Shown: positions 27,210 through 36,880 of the stretch, piece by piece
Layout of the letters: every line of letters begins with the position of its first letter
How positions within the stretch are numbered: position 1 is the stretch's first letter
NCBI GenBank assembly: GCA_004022145.1
Contig: RCNU01000009.1
DNA length: 64,000 nt
Direction: 5' to 3' (one strand)
Source of the DNA: Paecilomyces variotii
Taxonomy: Eukaryota
Notes under the pieces: model-generated
Told to the model about the DNA's origin: nothing
Databases searched by the model: none
What the model saw: only the letters and a program-made list of their open reading frames with translations
Translations under genes and position numbers: made by a program

Positions 27210-30200
27210 ATGGCTGAAGATGACGCTGAAAAGGCCTTTTTCCAGGCCCAGGCAATGAATGCAGATACTGTGAGCTACAATACTGTTGAGGAACAAGGTG
27301 CAGATAGTTCAGATTCAGATGATTATGACCCTTCAAAAACGCTGCAAGATCAATTTTCTGCTCCTTTAACAGACTCCAAGCAAGATGAAATACAAGAGTC
27401 TCCCCCAGTTACTGCACAATCGGCTTCAGGCACTCCTCAGCACGGTTCAGTACCGCCGGAGAATGGTTCGAATCAGCCTCTTAGTGGTAACTACCCGTCC
27501 GAGACGCCGTCCAGGACTGAGTCGAGAGCTTCAGCATCTATGCCTCCATCCAATACCCATGTGCAACCGAAGACCCGAACAATAGGGGGCTTTGTCGTTG
27601 AGGATGATGAGGAGGATGACAAGGGCGATACTGAGTATGAGCCACCGGCCGTACTGGGCGGTGGTGAAGATGTGGGAACTGTTTCTGCAGGCGTACCTGA
27701 GCAGGCTGTCTCTGAAAATGCAAATCAAAATACTTCTACCTCTGATGTATCAGTACAGCAGGCCGCACCAGACCTGTCCACCTCGAAAGATGTTTTCAAT
27801 AACTCCTATTCTCCTCCTGTTCCTGCTCCACAAAATGATCCTTCTCTTGTTCCTGGTCAAGATCTGTACAATCCCTTGGCTATGCAGGGCGGACTTGCAA
27901 GTAACAGCCCTGTGCCAACCCCTCCGGCTGCTACTGCCGAGTCTTCCTCTACAGGTCGGCTGCCCCACGATCGTGTTGGCATACTGGAGGATAGGATCCA
28001 AGAAGACCCTCGCGGAGATATTCCTGCATGGCTTGAGCTCATCAACGAGCATCGCAGTCGCAATAAGATCGACAACGCCCGTGAGGTCTATGAGCGTTTC
28101 TTCAAAGTCTTTCCTCAAGCGGTAAGTATCTCATGACATTATTCCTTCGATTTCACCGGAACTCACGAATATTAGGCGGATCAATGGGTCTCATATGCCA
28201 ATATGGAGTCTGAAAACAACGAACTTTACCGTCTAGAGCAGATCTTCAACAGGACGCTTCTCGCAACCCCCAGTGTTCAGCTGTGGTCTGTCTATCTTGA
28301 CTATGTTCGTCGCCGTAACCCCTTAACAACAGACACCACAGGTCAGGCCAGACGAATTATATCGTCTGCTTATGATTTTGCGCTTCAGAATATTGGTATC
28401 GATAAGGATTCAGCTCCTATCTGGGTGGATTACGTCCAGTTCATACGTTCAGGCCCGGGTAATATTGGGGGTTCTGGCTGGCAGGACCAGCAGAAGATGG
28501 ACCTATTGCGGAAGGCTTACCAGAAAGCGATCTGTGTACCTACTCATGCTGTAAACACTTTCTGGAAGGAGTATGATCAGTTTGAGATGGGTCTGAATAA
28601 ACTTACTGTAGGTCTCTTCGTCTTTTTGACGAAAGTTTTGATAAAGTTTGATGAGCTAATACGGTTCTGTCAGGGTCGCAAATTTCTCCAGGAGCGCTCT
28701 CCTGCATATATGACCGCGCGGAGCTCATACACTGAGCTCCAGAATATCACGCGTGATCTTATCCGTACTTCGTTACCTAGGCTACCTCCTATTCCGGGCT
28801 CAGAAGGAGACGTGGAGTTTAATCAGCAGGTCGAGATATGGAAGCGTTGGATTGACTGGGAGAAGAGCGACCCATTGGTTCTCAAAGAAGAAGATATTGC
28901 AGGTTTCAGGGCGCGTGTATTGTATGTCTACAAGCAAGCGCTGATGGCCCTGAGATTCCTGCCCGAAATATGGTTTGAGGCGGCGGAGTTCTGCTTCCAG
29001 AATGATATGGAAACAGAAGGGAATGAGTTCTTGAAGCAAGGAATAGACGCCAACCCAGAGAGTTGTCTGCTTGCATTCAAGCGGGCTGATCGCCTTGAGA
29101 TTACGTCGGAATCAGAACAAGACCCGAAGAAGAGAGGTGCCAAAGTAAGGGAACCTTACGACAAAGTTCTCGATGCGCTCTATGACTTGATCAATAAGGC
29201 TCGCACCCGCGAAGCGCAAGACGTCGCTCGTATTGAAGAAACCTATGCCAACGCTCAACCAGAGAACCTGCCTGTTCAGGAAGAGGACGAGGATGAGGAC
29301 CGTGGGAGTGAATCAAAGGCGAAGGAGTCTGCGAAAAAGGCCCAGATTGACGCGGTGCGGAAAGCGCATGCTGTGCAAATCGGGATTCTTTCTAAGACAA
29401 TATCCTTCGCGTGGATTGCTCTGATGCGCGCGATGCGTCGTATTCAAGGAAAGGGCAAGCCTGGTGAAATGGCTGGCTCAAGACAGATATTTGCGGATGC
29501 TCGCAAACGTGGCCGGATCACCAGTGACGTCTATATCGCCAGTGCTCTCATTGAATATCACTGTTATAAGGATCCGGCAGCGACGAAGATCTTTGAGCGT
29601 GGTGCAAAGCTGTTCCCAGAAGATGAGAATTTTGCTCTCGAATATTTGAAACATTTGATTGATATCAACGACGTCACGAGTAGGTGTTTCTGTGTTCCAT
29701 CTGAGCAGCAGAACTGTGAGCTAATGTGGTAATTGCAGATGCGAGAGCGGTATTTGAGATGACTGTCAGGAAGCTGGCATCCAATCCAGAGAACGTCCAC
29801 AAGGCAAAACCCATTTTCGCCTTCCTTCACGAGTATGAGTCCCGATACGGCGACTTAGTCCAAGTGGTCAATTTGGAGACGCGGATGCGCGAGCTATTCC
29901 CTGAGGATCCGGCCTTAGCACACTTTTCGCACCGCTATTTGACGTCCACTTTCGATCCTACAGCAGTCCGACCGATCATATCACCCTCTCAAGCGAGACC
30001 AAAGACGCTGGTAACAACCGAGCAGGTCACTGACGCACCTGTTCCACGGTATGCCGACGCGCCGTCGACGAGTTCTCCCAAGCGGGCATTCCCGCTTGAC
30101 GAATTGGACGATGAGATGGGAAGACCCCGTAAATTTATCCGCGCAGAGTCACCGCTCAAAGCCGCGGCCGCTCGACGCGTCGATCAACAGAAACAGACCC

Positions 30201-30615
30201 AAGTGGTCAACGGCGGAATTCAGAGCAGAGCGCAGTACAGACCCCAGTCCTCTGCAGCCCCTTTACCTCGCGATGTCGTCTATCTTCTTAGTATAATCCC
30301 CCCTGCTTCTGCGTACAATGCTGGCAGGTTTTCCCCTGAAAAGATGGTGGATCTCCTCCGAAGGATCGATATTCCTTCGTCCATATCACAGTTACCCAAT
30401 GTCTCGCAGGCTATGTATGGAATGCCAGCTGGACAGACGCAAGTCCTTGGGATGCACCCTTCAACTGGTAAGATGCTTGTGTCCTCCCATTTGTTGAATG
30501 CATAAGGCTCCCGCAAAGTGGGAAAAGTACCTGCGGTTCTGCCTGGGATACTATTAGATGAACTTGGAAGACTCCTCGCTAACAGTTCTTGTTTCCTCCA
30601 GGTCAATACCGTTAG
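27210..30615 (+). CDS. RNA14: mRNA 3'-end processing protein Rna14 (CstF-77 ortholog, HAT repeats), 5 coding exons
   Basis: RLPHDRVGILEDRI; HAT repeats (LWSVYLDYVRR, MDLLRKAYQKA, WKRWIDWEK, KIFERGAKLF). Introns ~28122-28175, ~28608-28673, ~29683-29738, ~30468-30601; tiny last exon GQYR stop. Confidence 0.92.
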
Positions 30616-33136
30616 TTCGCACTGTAACGGAAGAACCAAGCATAGGGGCGCCCTTAAGGATACTATGGCCCTCGTACTAGCTCAATCTCGACTACAACTC
30701 CTCGATCAGATTTTCTTGTTTGTCATGCTTTGATGTTATTGAATGTAAATGGACATCACCATATGCACCTAAAACAGGCACACCTGCATGCGAAGTGAAC
30801 GGCGTTGTTTGGTTTGGTGTTCTTTCTCTTTTTCTTTTCTTTTCTTTTTTCTAAAAGCCGGATGGCGACATGCTCATAGCGAGGATTGTGATCGGCTTCT
30901 TGGGTCGGACATTCAAGGAAGGATGGGGGCATTTGTACAGTTCGATGACGGGCGGAAGATTCTACGAATGGAGAGCAATCGACGAGACTCCGTATTTCTA
31001 AGCAAATGGGAGATGCTCATTTAATACTTGAAAAGCATCATCATAACATGTATTGTTCTGAAGCGTACCTTTTCTTATTCCAGTTTACGCAGTGTAGTTC
31101 GGTCCTATTTACACGATGCTTGTCTGAATCAATGTCCAGAAACAAATGCTAGATAGTATTTTCCGCGTAGTTCATTCCATTCTCAAGCAGAGGGTGCAAC
31201 ATTACATACGGTAGTCTCTTGCCTACACACGCAGAAAGTAGTTATATACATCATCAGCGACTGCCAGCTTTCGGTCTGATATTCTCAGACATCGAACATC
31301 TTGATACTGTGACTTTTCGCTGATCTCAAATAGCAAGCTCAAAAGGACTGATCTGCAATCCATAATATCGAGCTTTATTTTCCGACAACAGTTAGCTATG
31401 TCACCTACAGATAGCAGCCACTGGCAAATTAACAAGGTTTGTCCATTCTGTTATGTAACGGTCGGGAATCTCGACCGGTCCAGCTCATTTCACTTTTTCG
31501 TATACCCTGACGATATCCAGAGATGGTGAATATGGAACTTTGTCTATACAGGCTCACGCTCAGTACATTTCCTTATTAATCAAGTCCACCGTTCACTCCG
31601 TTGTCTTCTGTTCTGTTTCCGAGTGTATGAACGCTGTCAATAATCTGCCCTCCAGTTTGTATCGAAGATTGTTGTACTGCACAGAATTTCGGTTATGTCG
31701 AGCCTATTGAATATCCGAGGAGACAGTACTCTGCAATTTAAAATCGGTAGCTAGCCCTTTTACCTTTTTAGAATGGATGCTTAGATATGTGATCATACGT
31801 ACCTGCTTGAATAAACATGATCGCAGATTCTAAGAGACGATCGATTCCATTGTGTTTATGGTTCTCAAGTAGCTACGACTTAGCATGTAAAATTGGGAGG
31901 TAATATACCATAGTCTACTGTATTGGGTCGGGAAGAACATAAATTTATCTCACAATGCTTCCAATGCCACAGGACTCGCTATAGTGTAGGAAGTTCCCAC
32001 ACGACACGCCGTAACAAACAGAACGTCCCTTCAAACCTGGGATTCCACAAGTATGGACATTCAACCCATGCATCGAAGCACAGTAGTATTTTCTAGAACC
32101 AGTCTGGAACCATAGCCATTATAAACATGAGATGGGGTATATTATGTCCGTCATTTGGTAGATCTTCTAAGTAGACGCTGATTGCACATCCAGGATCGAG
32201 TCAGTCAGAAAGTCCAAACCTTCAAAGATGTGACAGGGAAATCTCACTTAGCTCACTATCTCAGAGACAATCCAAATACTATTTTGTGGCGCGTAGTTCT
32301 GCGAGGCATCAATATTTAAGAGGACTCGAACGCATATAGACTGCGTGATCTCGACAACTCCACAACTATCATCCTAAGGATCCATCAGCTCAGGCTTCTC
32401 ATTCTCCTTTTTCGATTCGTTCCTCACTTCTCCTAAATTAAGCAAACATACCTACTTGACATCCTAATCATATACTCCTCAATTCCGGAAATTACCTTCT
32501 GTTCAGAACCACGTCAGTGGGACAACCAGCCCCATTGAGGCTGGCTCTGTTGTTCCTTCCTAAAACGTCTTGTGGTCGCTGTGGACGTCAACTTCCTAGG
32601 AGACAGTCTGTGTTCTCTTTCTCCAGACGCGTCCTCGCCTCAAGGTCTCCTCTTCTCCTCTCCTCTCCTGCTTTCTCCCTCCCACATCTCACCTCTATCC
32701 TCTCCTCCTTCATCCTCACCTACAACTCGAAGTTGCTTTTCTTTCCTGTTCTGCACTGTCTCATCTCATACACCCTTCCACACATCTATCTCTTCTCTTC
32801 TTCGTATTTCTTCGTTGCAAGTTATCGCCATATCGCTTTTCCTACCCTTCAAGTAAGTGTTCTCTTTCTTCTCTCTCAGCAGTTAGGCTGTCTCTGGTAC
32901 CCCATCACTTGGAAGAGAATCCAGCTTTTCAGGTAGGTAACACGCCATCAACGTTTCTTCTCTTCGTTCCTCCAACGCTCCTCAGTTCATCGATTTTGCC
33001 CTTGTCCTTATTGCAATACACTCTGTAGTGACTAACGAGCATAGGTTCTGACTTCGTCGGGTTTTCAGCAGTCTTGTTTCCTTGAGAGCTCCACTCGCGA
33101 CGATCGATACTTAAATCAGGGTTTATACCAGTCGCC

Positions 33137-36100
33137 ATGTCTGGTAGACCATCCTTGCCTGGGTCTCCGACCACTCACCCAATGAGCCCGACCCAGCGTG
33201 AACCCGCTCGCGGTGATCCTGCTTTGGATCGTCCGCGGCTGGCAACAGATAGCTGTAAGAACATCGATCTTCCGCCGACGGCGTTTGCTCTGAACTATCC
33301 GGTAAGTCAGTGATGTTTGTATTGCTTTCGAGAATATGTCTTTCGGTTTCCCACGCTGCTCGGCCAGTCACCTCCCAAATATATTGAGAAACGCAATGAC
33401 TTCTCTAAGGAGAACGAGTGGATGCCCCTCCCCAAGACTACCTCCTGGTTGCTTTCACGCAAGCAGTAACTAGTAGTCTGCTGCTTCTTCCCGAGCTTTT
33501 TTTGATAGTGAATGCGGGATCCCGCATCATCCCCTATTGTCTTCGGCCGCCCAACTCCTTGAGTGGTTGCAACCATTCACAGACAACCATCTTCCTATTG
33601 CTATGTCGCAGCAATTCATCGCTACCTATGCGGCACTTTCACCCATGATCGTTCAAGCTGCGTATCCCATGAATTCACACGATTACTCCGCTTCTTGGTG
33701 TATATATAGACCTATTCGCCTCGTTCATTACTCTTCTTCTTCTCCCCCAAACCACCAAAGCTCCTCTCTCTTCAACTGCCTCCCAACTCGATCATACCTC
33801 TTGCTGCTTCAACCCACATCTCTTGTACCTTGAGACCTTGAGTGTGCTAGGCCTACACGATGCAGAATCTTATTGAAGATCCGGACATCCCTCAGCCCGT
33901 TCTGACGGCGGAGATGATCCGTGCTCCTCAGTTTGATGGGATCATCAAAGGGTTGCCCCGTAACCTGAACTTCTATGGCGCTGACGATCAAAAGAATGCC
34001 GTTCCGTTGGACATCTGCCAACGTCCTGGAACCAACACGACTGGAAAAGAAATCGAGGTCTCGCTGAATGCGTATCCGATTTCTAAGTTTCCTAGCAAGA
34101 CCGTATACCAATACGATGTAAGTATAATTCCGTTCCACAACCCCGGTGACGTCCTGACATATCTGACGCATTTACAGGTCCATATCGGCAACGGCGCGGA
34201 GAAGCGTGCTGTCATCCAGAAAGTATGGAACTCGAACGCCAGGAAGTCAGTTCTTCGCCAGACCATCTTCGATGGTAACAAGCTCGCTTGGTAAGTATCA
34301 TCCGCTCCCCTAGTTGATTCTTGAACTAACTTCATTAGGTCATTGAACAATTTTGAAAATGGTTTGAATGTGGTCGTCGATCTTGACGCTGAGCAAGGTC
34401 GTCGCAATATCACTGGAAAGAACCAATTCCGCTTGGTCGTCCGCCGCACCAAGACGGTCAACCTTTCCGTGTTGAGCGCCTGGCTCCGTGGCCAGACTTC
34501 CTATAGTGAGGATGTGAACGAGGCTTTGAGTAAGTACTGCATCGGTCTATATCCACTGGAAATAGGGCATTTACTGACGGCCTAGCTTTCTTCGATCATG
34601 TGCTCCGCGAATATCCATCTACCAAGTTCGTGACCCATAAGAGGTCCTTCATTGATCCCAAGGGCCAGAAGGAAGACCTTGGAAATGGAGTTCTCGCCTT
34701 CAAGGGCGTCTACCAGGCGATCCGCATTACTCATGTAAGTCATCAATCCGTCTGTACCAGTTTATTTTCACATTAGTCTAACGCACTATTGTAGCCCGGG
34801 CGGCTGTGTGTCAACATCGACGTCTCCAACACGTGCTACTGGGCACGTATCTCTATCATGGGTGCTTGCATTGGCATGACCGATTCCCGTGACATTCAGC
34901 AGGTTATGTGGAACCTGAAGCCCGTCCCGGATGGCTACGGTGGCTTCACGGAATCGGCAATGTTCTATGAAGTCCACAAGCGGCTGAACAAATTGGTTGT
35001 CCGTCCCAACTATAACGGCTGCCCTGTGTCTGATCAGGACTTCGTTATCAAGGGCCTGGTCAATTCCAGTCCTCGAATGTTCACAATTGATATCAAGGAC
35101 AAGGCTACTGGGACGACTAGACGGCTCACTGTACAGGCTTACTTCAAGGAGAAGTATAACATAGACCTGAGGTACCCAGACCTTCCGATGGTCGAAATGA
35201 CCAAGAAGGAGGTCTATTACCCAATGGAATTCTTGACCATCCAGGGCCTCAACAAGTACCCGTACAAACTGAGCGAACATCAAACAGCAAAGATGATCAA
35301 GTTTGCTGTTTCTCGTCCTGCCGAACGTTTGAAGTCCATTGAGAAGTGCAAGGAAACCCTCGATCATTCTCACGACCCAGTCTTGCAGTCGTTTGGCCTC
35401 AAGGTCGAAGAAAACATGATACGCACGAAAGCCCGTCTTCTCCCCAACCCGGAGATCCAGTTCGGTAACCAGAAACTCAATCCTGGGACCAATGGACGCT
35501 GGGATCTGCGAGGAAAGAAGTTTCTCGAGCCGAATAAGTGGCCTCTGACCGCGTGGGGCGTGGGATACGTATCCAACAACCGTCACCCGATCAACCAGAG
35601 CCAAGTCGAAAGCTTCTGTGACAGTTTTATGAAGATATACTCTGGTCACGGTGGCAAGGTGGCTAATCGTCCTTGCATTGTGGAACTCAAGGAAGATGTG
35701 GCTGAAGCCGTTAAGAAGGTCTACACGGCCACTGGAAACAAGTTCCAGAAGGACCCTCAGCTGATCATTTTCATTGTTCCTGACAAGAACTCCTTCACCT
35801 ACCTTCGAATCAAGAAGTCAATGGACTGCCGCTGGGGGGCTCCTTCGCAGGTCCTCCAATCGGAACAGGTTGTGAAGGGTAACCCTCAGTATGTCTCCAA
35901 CGTTTTGATGAAAGTCAATGCGAAGCTTGGAGGTACCACTGCTCGCGCGATCTCCAAAATGCCAGATTGCGGCGTCCGCTCCGGCTCGATGATAATCGGG
36001 GCTGACGTTTCACACTCAAGCCCTGGAAGCTGGGCACCTTCAATGGCTGCTGTATCTGTTTGTGCGGATTCATATGGGGCTCGTTACTGGGGAGCGTGCG

Positions 36101-36880
36101 ATACGAACATGGAGCGTGTCGAGATGATCGCTCATTCCAACTTGCACACCATGTTGAAACCTCTTATTAGAGAATGGATTATGACGGTCAACAAGGGCCG
36201 ACTTCCAGAGCACGTCTATTACTTCCGAGACGGCGTCTCAGATGGTCAGTACCAGCAGGTGCTCATGGATGAGGTGCCGCATATCAAGGCGCTCCTTGGG
36301 GTGATAGCTGAAGGTGCTTGGAATGGGAAATTCACAGTGGTTATCTGCTCTAAGCGGCACCACATTCGAGCATTCCCTAGACCTAATGACCGTAACGCTG
36401 CAGACAGGTTCGGCAATCCTCTGCCAGGAACCTTGATTGAACGGGATATAACCAGCCCAGACCACTGGGACTTTATCCTGTACTCGCACATCGCCCTGCA
36501 GGGTACTTCTCGCCCTGTTCACTATCACGTCATCCTGGATGAGCTCAAACACAAGCCTCACCAGCTCCAGAATATGATCTATGATCATTGCTACCAGTAC
36601 ATGAGGTCGACTACTTCTGTCTCACTTTGTAAGTTGGTGCTCGGTTACATTATTCTTCATCCTGCTAACCATCATTACAGTCCCCGCAGTGTACTATGCG
36701 CATCTAATCTCAAACAGAGCGCGCCATCACGAAAACGTTCCTGCCAGCTCGGGTCCTCAGAGCGGACCGCACATCAAGCTGGACAACCCAAAGCCGAAGA
36801 AACCACAGCCGCTGGAGAAGCGCCTGCTTCCCATGCACGCCAGTTCCAACAGGCTGGCTTTCGGGATGTGGTACATCTAG
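33137..36880 (+). CDS. Argonaute (PAZ/MID/PIWI) protein with an intact DEDH catalytic tetrad
   Basis: Predicted exons 33137-33301 (or an alternative start at 33860), 33995-34117, 34178-34290, 34339-34529, 34586-34734, 34795-36628, 36681-36880. PAZ (YFKEKYNIDLRYPDLP, YYPME), MID (NVLMKVNAKLGG), PIWI (IGADVSH, RVEMI, YFRDGVS, QGTSRPVHY, PAVYYAH), C-terminal MWYI. Confidence 0.93.

Follow-up and report, generated by a model that had tools for sequence, protein, structure and literature searches.

A probable, old and unannotated alternative-first-exon architecture at an Argonaute locus of Paecilomyces variotii and related fungi

The window analyzed here is a stretch of 64,000 nucleotides (nt) from Paecilomyces variotii (GenBank assembly GCA_004022145.1, contig RCNU01000009.1), within which the + strand carries an AGO-clade Argonaute gene, i.e. 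a gene of RNA silencing, preceded by two alternative coding leaders. Leader 1 is an exon of its own, while leader 2 lies within the intron that follows leader 1 and runs without interruption into the Argonaute body. The annotated P. variotii protein P0158 maps exactly onto the window (914 of 914 residues), which defines the exon 33860-34117 and the five further coding exons given in the last line of the list below; the model that begins with leader 2 is identical to the annotated models P0158 and P0165. Exons 34178-36880 cover the N, PAZ, L2, MID and PIWI domains. Pfam matches to PAZ (6e-16), ArgoL2 (1e-13), ArgoMid (4e-12) and Piwi (1e-67) all fall in the large exon, and the match to ArgoN starts at the end of exon 33860-34117 and is weak on this first exon alone. 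The domain order N - PAZ - MID - PIWI of a eukaryotic Argonaute was found both with Pfam and in a sequence search of PDB, which returned human AGO1-4 with E about 1e-77 and the MID-PIWI part of Neurospora QDE-2 with E 7e-40. In the alignment A2, D641, E680, D716 and H856 (P0001 numbering) are invariant and lie within the contexts GADVSH, RDGVS and YYAHL; these residues may be the DEDH catalytic tetrad, to judge from the motifs of human AGO2 rather than from structural superposition. The Pfam and PDB matches bear out the identification as Argonaute that had been made in a sequence-only reading of the window.

The transcript data comprise four metatranscriptome runs, aligned to the window as assembled contigs, which show neither transcription starts nor strand; the contigs of run X6 are about 97-98 % alike to the window, but not identical. 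The features of the locus are the following.

32767-32852, + strand: exon in the 5' untranslated region (5'UTR) of the leader-1 transcript, minimum extent (X6 contig record 12, joined to 33061)
32853-33060, + strand: 5'UTR intron of about 208 nt, with a GTAAGT donor at 32853 (joint of 32852 to 33061 in run X6)
33137-33301, + strand: leader 1, alternative first coding exon of 55 codons with a phase-0 end (sequence, RNA contigs, homologs)
33302-33994, + strand: intron 1 of the leader-1 transcript, 693 nt, phase 0, host of leader 2 and of the presumed second promoter (RNA joint, GT..AG)
33701-33708, + strand: TATATATA, candidate TATA box, 159 nt upstream of the leader-2 ATG (sequence)
33725-33859, + strand: pyrimidine-rich, ATG-free leader before the leader-2 start, with the nearest upstream ATG 191 nt away (sequence)
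33860-33994, + strand: leader 2, 45 codons continuous with the shared exon (sequence, homologs, identity with P0158 and P0165)
33981-33994, + strand: branch site CTGAC (33981-33985) and AG acceptor (33993-33994) of the leader-1 splice, within the leader-2 codons A-D-D-Q-K (sequence)
33995-34117, + strand: shared part of the exon (NAVPLDICQRPG...YQYD), with the start of the ArgoN domain (RNA joints at 33995 and 34117^34178)
34178-34290, 34339-34529, 34586-34734, 34795-36628 and 36681-36880 (stop included), + strand: remaining coding exons (mapping of P0158, Pfam, RNA joints)

The ATGs, donors, TATATATA box, C/T tract, branch site and acceptor described in the sequence-only reading are all present where it had placed them. 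It had also called the intron of about 693 nt unusually long, and rightly so: the five other coding introns of the Argonaute gene measure 60, 48, 56, 60 and 52 nt, and intron 1 is 12-14 times longer than any of them.

Leader 1 carries a conserved motif, which in the window reads GDPALDRPRLATDSCKNIDLPPTAFALNYP and has the general form DPALD..TDxCKN[IV]DLP..AF, and it ends at a phase-0 GTAAGT donor at 33302. The relevant X6 contigs are records 15 (depth 293.5) and 12 (depth 135). Record 15 connects 33300/1 with 33994/5, skipping 693 nt between GT..AG boundaries, and also holds the 34117^34178 joint. Record 12 covers 32767-32852 and then 33061-33301, stopping exactly at the leader-1 donor, and another X6 joint, 34529^34586, agrees with the gene model. 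The junction 33301^33995, which had been proposed as the check on the two-leader arrangement, is therefore present in RNA (GT..AG, with a short side of 29 nt), and it implies that leader 1 is a genuine coding exon joined in frame to the Argonaute. An upstream first exon that is spliced to the common exon, skipping the leader-2 exon, is thus seen in X6, and corresponding joins are found in the transcript-derived Monascus sequences P0007 and P0156. In X6 the segment 33414-33993, including the sequence specific to leader 2, is uncovered; contigs drop rare forms, and this gap is therefore uninformative on the expression of leader 2. For a loose end of 13 nt before 32767 in the same run, the window offers no convincing counterpart (allowing up to 2 mismatches, 2 hits versus 1.4 expected). 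The 5'UTR intron as aligned has a GT..GG boundary in the window strain, where the true acceptor may be a nearby AG (e.g. at 33067-33069). The strain sampled in X6 has a 4-nt insertion (TAGG) behind 33123, plus several substitutions nearby.

Leader 2 opens with an ATG at 33860 that has A at position -3, its frame is open through to the GTAAGT donor at 34118, and an in-frame TAG at 33848-33850 closes this frame three codons before the ATG. Its Met19 (33914) aligns with the Met of the 27-residue leader of Aspergillus, with 27 residues in each, and the leader of Paecilomyces has an 18-residue N-terminal extension that is identical at 16 of 18 positions between the window and Paecilomyces lecythidis. 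The start context of leader 2 was compared over 10 distinct loci, near-duplicates left out. All 10 are free of further ATGs, whatever the frame, over the 150 nt that precede the start, the nearest upstream ATG being 167-393 nt away, and have a purine at position -3; G is found at +4 in nine. Composition-preserving shuffles gave a probability of 0.14-0.47 per locus for such an ATG-free zone and a product of about 4e-6, or about 3e-4 once in-frame ATGs are discounted, as these are partly excluded by the choice of the first Met. The pyrimidine fraction over the same 150 nt is 0.54-0.84 per 50-nt block, versus 0.51-0.59 locus-wide; in the window, a C/T-rich tract spans approximately 33725-33830. 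These properties appear to be those of a short 5'UTR and not the ones expected of the interior of an intron, and the pyrimidine-rich, ATG-free zone together with the good start context argues for a transcription start within a few hundred bases of the leader-2 ATG.

The Met of leader 2 stands a few residues before a conserved [FL]-[RQ]-[HN] motif (MEVQTFRH, MDPTAFRH, MADEDVNLRH, MDFHAFQH and similar), the codons of [FL]R[HN] vary at the third position across loci (ttt/ttc cgt cac/cat; aga in L014), and most loci have a stop in this frame 3-19 codons before the Met. The downstream first exon thus has a conserved start codon and a coding leader of its own, and the earlier proposal of an ATG-started coding leader within the intron holds across genera.

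The end of leader 2 has a second property: GCTGAC (33980-33985) and AAG (33992-33994) stand immediately before 33995, and the C-terminal part of the leader is apparently dual-coded, serving as protein in one transcript and as branch site plus acceptor in the other. We examined this in 111 candidate sequences (P0001, P0004-P0043 and P0079-P0148), from which 101 leaders were obtained, including that of the window (RP...QYD anchor found, leader long enough). Twelve were dropped (8 with a leader-1 motif upstream, 4 longer than 70 amino acids (aa) or not starting with M), and the 89 kept contain leader 2 only. K or Q is found at the predicted acceptor codon in 80 of the 89, and [TAPS][ND] within the last nine residues in 77. 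Due to this dual coding, the C-terminal peptide is weaker as evidence of protein-level selection, while it is strong evidence that the splice of leader 1 to this acceptor is ancient.

Both leaders recur in annotated proteins of other species. A search with the 55-aa leader-1 peptide retrieved two proteins: P0002, 110 aa long and annotated in P. variotii as a "hypothetical protein", which reads through the GTAAGT donor, and P0003, which is 71 % identical to leader 1 up to ..NYP, i.e. the end of the exon, where the similarity ends. The homologs of leader 1 comprise P0002, P0003, P0007, P0012, P0036, P0039, P0089 and P0162. A leader of this type is joined directly to the shared exon in P0007 and P0156 (908 aa, on contigs of 3.3-3.4 kb), P0012, P0036, P0089 and P0101; a stretch of the form ..DPA....TDMC[KR]N[IV]DLP..AF.. 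passes directly into Y.VP...PRPG in Penicilliopsis zonata (P0012), Histoplasma (P0036), P0089, P0101 and Monascus (P0007). In many fungi leader-1-type sequences are long, rich in R, G, S and P, and have a basic MAGAGKKR start. A search with the 86-aa exon that contains leader 2 retrieved P0001 of P. lecythidis (83 % identical, beginning MMQNLIEDP). Dozens of exon-sized reading frames have a Met just ahead of [FL]R[HN], only a few residues away. Most Aspergillus models begin with the 27-residue leader 2, MENLEQINKLTGGLRHLR.RDADE..K, and models from Onygenales begin with ..LFRHMHVTDQSAEQ or ..RN.IFYETDPD... Some models contain both leaders in series, leader 1 followed by leader 2: P0039 from Aspergillus ellipticus, P0075/76 from Aspergillus oryzae (with leader 1 truncated), P0030 from Onygenales sp., P0033 from Coccidioides posadasii, and, in Paecilomyces, P0162 (969 aa) and P0163 (974 aa). 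From these models it follows that the genomic order leader 1, leader 2, shared exon is common to Eurotiales and Onygenales.

The same order was sought directly in DNA by a scan of metagenome contigs with alignment of the exons, which returned 38 loci (cited by their L numbers). Both leaders are present at the DNA level in L003/4, L006/7, L009-13 and L029, where the upstream frame begins M[AT]GA.K.R.., carries a motif of the N..DL[PG]..AY type and ends at a phase-0 GTAAGT or GTGAGC donor, and an ATG-started leader-2 frame, continuous with the shared exon, lies downstream. The homologous phase-0 intron with leader 2 measures 599, 568, 551 and 720 nt (the last in both L009 and L012), a range of 551-720 nt taken from six leader-2 loci besides the window, L029 not among them. 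In the loci L016, L021 and L025, which have no leader 2, the homologous intron is 52 nt long and contains stop codons, and L036-38 have no intron at the homologous position. The acceptor codon of the leader-2 loci is AAG or CAG. CTGAC, CTAAC or CTAAT stands 14 nt before the exon in the window, L001/2, L003/4, L005, L006/7, L017 and L033-35; L014 and L029 have apparently slightly shifted acceptors, and L009-13 are without a canonical branch motif. To judge from these sequences, the same two-leader layout recurs in many related fungi and is missed or mis-joined by current annotations, and the arrangement would be an old one, present in Eurotiales, Onygenales and more distant fungal contigs. Both leaders are conserved beyond the species, across Eurotiales and Onygenales, with the two at the same locus in several species.

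Contigs from Monascus and Aspergillus fumigatus add a view of spliced RNA. In the large Monascus contigs the calls of open reading frames (ORFs) are exon-sized only, which implies that the full-length ORFs on 3-4 kb Monascus contigs come from spliced RNA. Among these transcript-sized contigs, P0007 and P0156 (908 aa) have the leader-1 N-terminus, while P0155 (896 aa) and P0157 (986 aa) have the leader-2 start. Leader 2 also opens two partly spliced A. fumigatus ORFs, P0085 and P0149, which lie on contigs of about 3.2 kb. RNAs that contain leader 2 and are otherwise spliced do exist. In Monascus P0157/P0154 the frame before the leader-2 Met is open for 90 codons, up to another ATG (MHHQADIH..); this upstream frame is C/T-rich, its translation is hydrophobic, and use of its ATG would give the 986-aa form.

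The reading we favor, with a probability of about 0.68, is that two Argonaute isoforms are made from two starts, and that the locus is probably an old, unannotated case of alternative-first-exon architecture. The Argonaute gene would have two mutually exclusive first coding exons. One isoform would be transcribed from an upstream promoter (C/T-rich, about 32600-32850), lose the 5'UTR intron, be translated from the ATG at 33137 and be spliced from 33301 to 33995, which by arithmetic from the exon coordinates would give a protein of about 924 aa with leader 1 as N-terminal extension. The other would come from a second transcript whose start would lie in intron 1, at most about 190 nt before the ATG at 33860, and translation from this ATG straight into the shared exon would yield the 914-aa protein of the current annotation. 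The last five codons of leader 2 would then double as branch site and AG acceptor for the splice of leader 1. AlphaFold2 (AF2) models of both forms have a confident Argonaute body, with a predicted template modeling score of 0.73 for the leader-2 form (P0001 and 35 relatives) and 0.77 for the leader-1 form (P0007 and 19 relatives). Residues 1-24 of the latter have a predicted local distance difference test (pLDDT) value below 50, and its motif region scores 53-69 and is modeled with two short helices; the AF2 models show no docking site for either leader. Both leaders are probably flexible extensions before the N domain, modeled at low confidence.

Several observations weigh against two isoforms. 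None of the reads or contigs displays a 5' end within intron 1, where we infer the second transcription start, as contigs of RNA cannot show starts. The 33301^33995 junction comes from a single contig with a short side of 29 nt, from a metatranscriptome that is 97-98 % alike to the window. The RNAs with leader 2 from Monascus and A. fumigatus are compatible with transcripts from the upstream promoter that retain intron 1, and P0157 has an open frame of at least 270 nt upstream of the leader-2 ATG. Part of the conservation of the leader-2 peptide, [TA][ND]..[KQ], is explained by splice signals alone, and AF2 places residues 1-43 of the leader-2 form at pLDDT below 50, i.e. without structural support for a folded element. 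The candidate TATA box fails as a conserved feature: TATAWA within 400 nt of the leader-2 ATG is found in 2 of 12 rows, those of the window and L001. Finally, classification of 76 full-length relatives of the N-terminal 300 residues by hidden Markov models (HMMs) gave 32 sequences with leader 2 only, 10 with leader 1 only, 2 with both and 32 with neither, but these counts are descriptive, since the HMMs were built from the same set and the one for leader 2 is narrow enough to miss P0001 itself.

The serious rival is intron retention, which explains the RNA contigs: a single promoter would yield a single functional protein, the leader-1 form, and the leader-2 frame would be no start, but a segment conserved for the branch site, the acceptor and intronic regulation, while RNAs containing leader 2 would be by-products that retain intron 1. 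The leader-1 form is indeed the only clearly spliced RNA of P. variotii in these data, the branch site and AG account for the conserved C-terminal residues of leader 2, and the upstream intron sequence on P0157 and the low AF2 confidence for leader 2 fit as well. We nevertheless regard this explanation as unlikely, for it does not account for the features at the other end of leader 2, namely a Met at a fixed distance from [FL]R[HN] with varying third codon positions, a frame that is closed shortly before the Met in most loci, an ATG-free zone and a favorable start context in each of the 10 loci, and, within Paecilomyces, 16 identical residues among the first 18. It would also leave aside that in lineages without leader 2 the intron has collapsed to 52 nt, with stops.

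The sequence-only reading had itself named an alternative, in which exon 1 is spliced to the in-frame CAG at 33865, or to a nearby acceptor, and a single protein carries both leaders in series. Such a protein exists only in annotated models, i.e. P0162 (..ALNYP|NLIEDP..) and P0163, as well as P0039, P0030 and P0033 in other genera, but the RNA joint goes to 33995 and not to 33866, and the conserved splice signals oppose it too: the 60 nt before 33865, read by eye, contain no CTRAY branch motif, while CTGAC stands 14 nt before 33995, as it does elsewhere. Moreover, the transcript-derived leader-1 forms of Monascus and the models P0012 and P0036 join leader 1 directly to the shared exon, and in other loci there are stops a few codons upstream of the leader-2 Met. 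We consider the in-series protein quite improbable. Even less credit is due to the notion that the Argonaute proper starts at leader 2, with leader 1 being either a small gene of its own or an upstream reading frame, as the annotation of P0002 (DTO271G3_8186, 110 aa) beside the 914-aa P0165 (DTO271G3_8185) would have it. P0002 and P0003 just read through the GTAAGT donor, with the similarity stopping at the end of the exon, leader-1-type sequences form the N-termini of full-length Argonautes in many fungi, and the RNA junction that joins leader 1 in frame to the Argonaute contradicts a separate gene, which makes this explanation very improbable.

As to the origin of the two leaders, a tandem duplication of the exon had been suggested, together with a loose likeness of their LP...F segments. 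A comparison of the leader-1 profile (20 rows) with the leader-2 profile (61 rows) by hhalign gave a probability of 0.4 % and E 0.16, with only five columns aligned (kNiDL / Rhl..). The likeness is thus without statistical support, and the duplication, for which this was the homology test, is left unsupported, as no homology between leader 1 and leader 2 is detectable.

Runs X2-X4, which belong to one study, contain only unspliced contigs colinear with the genome, covering 32158-33852 (depth 39-61) and 33864-35000 with introns retained. In X2 and X4 the depth between about 32160/32260 and 33813/33852 is 2-4 times that of the flanking parts; the contigs of X2-X4 all break within 33813-33920, with adapter sequence at contig tips, and one of them is 5.5 kb long and runs past the start of the aligned stretch. 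These contigs may represent DNA or pre-mRNA in the library, RNA that is antisense or unspliced and crosses the upstream promoter and leader 1, or a strain polymorphism, and we used them neither for nor against a second promoter. Differences between strains are distributed unevenly: about 24 are listed in 32158-33136 (promoter and 5'UTR), and in 33137-33852 only 33474 (X2-X4) and 33211 (X6; synonymous, CGC to CGT). With four further differences not displayed, the strains seem to agree more closely in the long intron than upstream of it.

Upstream of the Argonaute gene, the + strand carries at 28176-30505 a Suf / RNA14 (CstF-77-like) factor of mRNA 3'-end processing (Pfam Suf, 4e-144). In the metagenome locus L022, the segment 1558-2343 upstream of the Argonaute encodes the same Suf gene (45 % identity over 255 aa), and reading frames similar to Suf are also found in L018, L020 and L031, which indicates that the Suf-Argonaute neighborhood is conserved.

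Whether the two isoforms also differ in function is a further step; we suppose that they may. Tentatively, and with considerable doubt, we can imagine that Eurotiomycetes and more distant filamentous ascomycetes have long kept an intron-hosted promoter and two Argonautes with distinct roles in RNA interference (RNAi), e.g. by stage or compartment. The leader-1 form would then contribute a long or phosphorylatable extension with DLP..AF and the leader-2 form a short extension with the FRH-type motif, and a switch between them might be aided by transcription across the upstream promoter (e.g. that of the unspliced unit 32160-33850, RNA-like and present in three runs). Should both isoforms be produced, the public models of this Argonaute in Aspergillus, Monascus, Paecilomyces and Onygenales would mostly represent just one of the two proteins or else join the leaders artificially, and knock-outs, N-terminal tags and expression measurements of this RNAi gene would need to be re-read isoform by isoform; the two N-terminal extensions would also offer a handle on how fungal Argonautes are sorted between pathways. 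The five codons used also as branch site and acceptor suggest that splice signals can shape a protein sequence. Some caution is due, as alternative promoters are common as a mechanism and the second start is one that we only infer.

Compared with the annotated Argonautes of these fungi, i.e. P0158/P0165 of P. variotii, P0001 of P. lecythidis, P0150 of Monascus purpureus and the Aspergillus "eIF-2C4 / Piwi domain" proteins of about 896 aa, the locus is the same gene with the same leader-2 N-terminus and with ArgoN, PAZ, L2, MID and PIWI as in the window. The difference is that the annotated models give one protein only, with leader 1 left out, set apart as a gene of 110 aa (P0002) or placed in series with leader 2 (P0162, P0163). 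Within Paecilomyces the annotations are inconsistent, comprising the 914-aa leader-2 form, a 916-aa RefSeq form, the in-series models of 969 and 974 aa, and leader 1 as a separate gene; of the 16 members of the Paecilomyces cluster 15 are listed, and the RNA-supported form with leader 1 joined to 33995 is absent from all of these. The RefSeq-type model P0161 (916 aa) starts at Met19 (ATG 33914) and reads the 60-nt intron 34118-34177 in frame (..YQYDVSIIPFHNPGDVLTYLTHLQVHIGNG..), whereas this intron is spliced out in the RNA contig. We found no report of fungal Argonaute isoforms in the full-text literature, the coverage of which excludes subscription journals and supplements; passages of PMC10275271 and PMC12754623 contain nothing on the subject. 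QDE-2 of Neurospora (PDB 2yhb/2yha, MID-PIWI) resembles the window protein as a fungal AGO-clade member with a homologous MID-PIWI part (E 7e-40), but the window protein has its better score, which also extends over a longer stretch, with human AGO1-4 (E about 1e-77). It may be an ortholog either of QDE-2/RsdA/PpdA or of the second fungal paralog (SMS-2/PpdB type).

As a mechanism, alternative promoters that yield N-terminal proteoforms are already well known: an alternative promoter in intron 1, with a first exon that is a 5' extension of exon 2, is a general eukaryotic way of making them. The Argonaute locus would resemble such genes in having two mutually exclusive 5' coding exons before a common body, with the downstream exon adjoining the shared exon and holding the acceptor for the upstream one; it differs in that the gene is a fungal Argonaute and that the second start is predicted rather than mapped. 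Argonaute isoforms with different N-termini are known from other eukaryotes, as the long and short forms of Toxoplasma TgAgo and of C. elegans ALG-1, and the N-terminal extension of Arabidopsis AGO1 has functions in localization and loading. What these proteins would share with the locus in P. variotii is that the part that differs is the variable, largely disordered region before the N domain.

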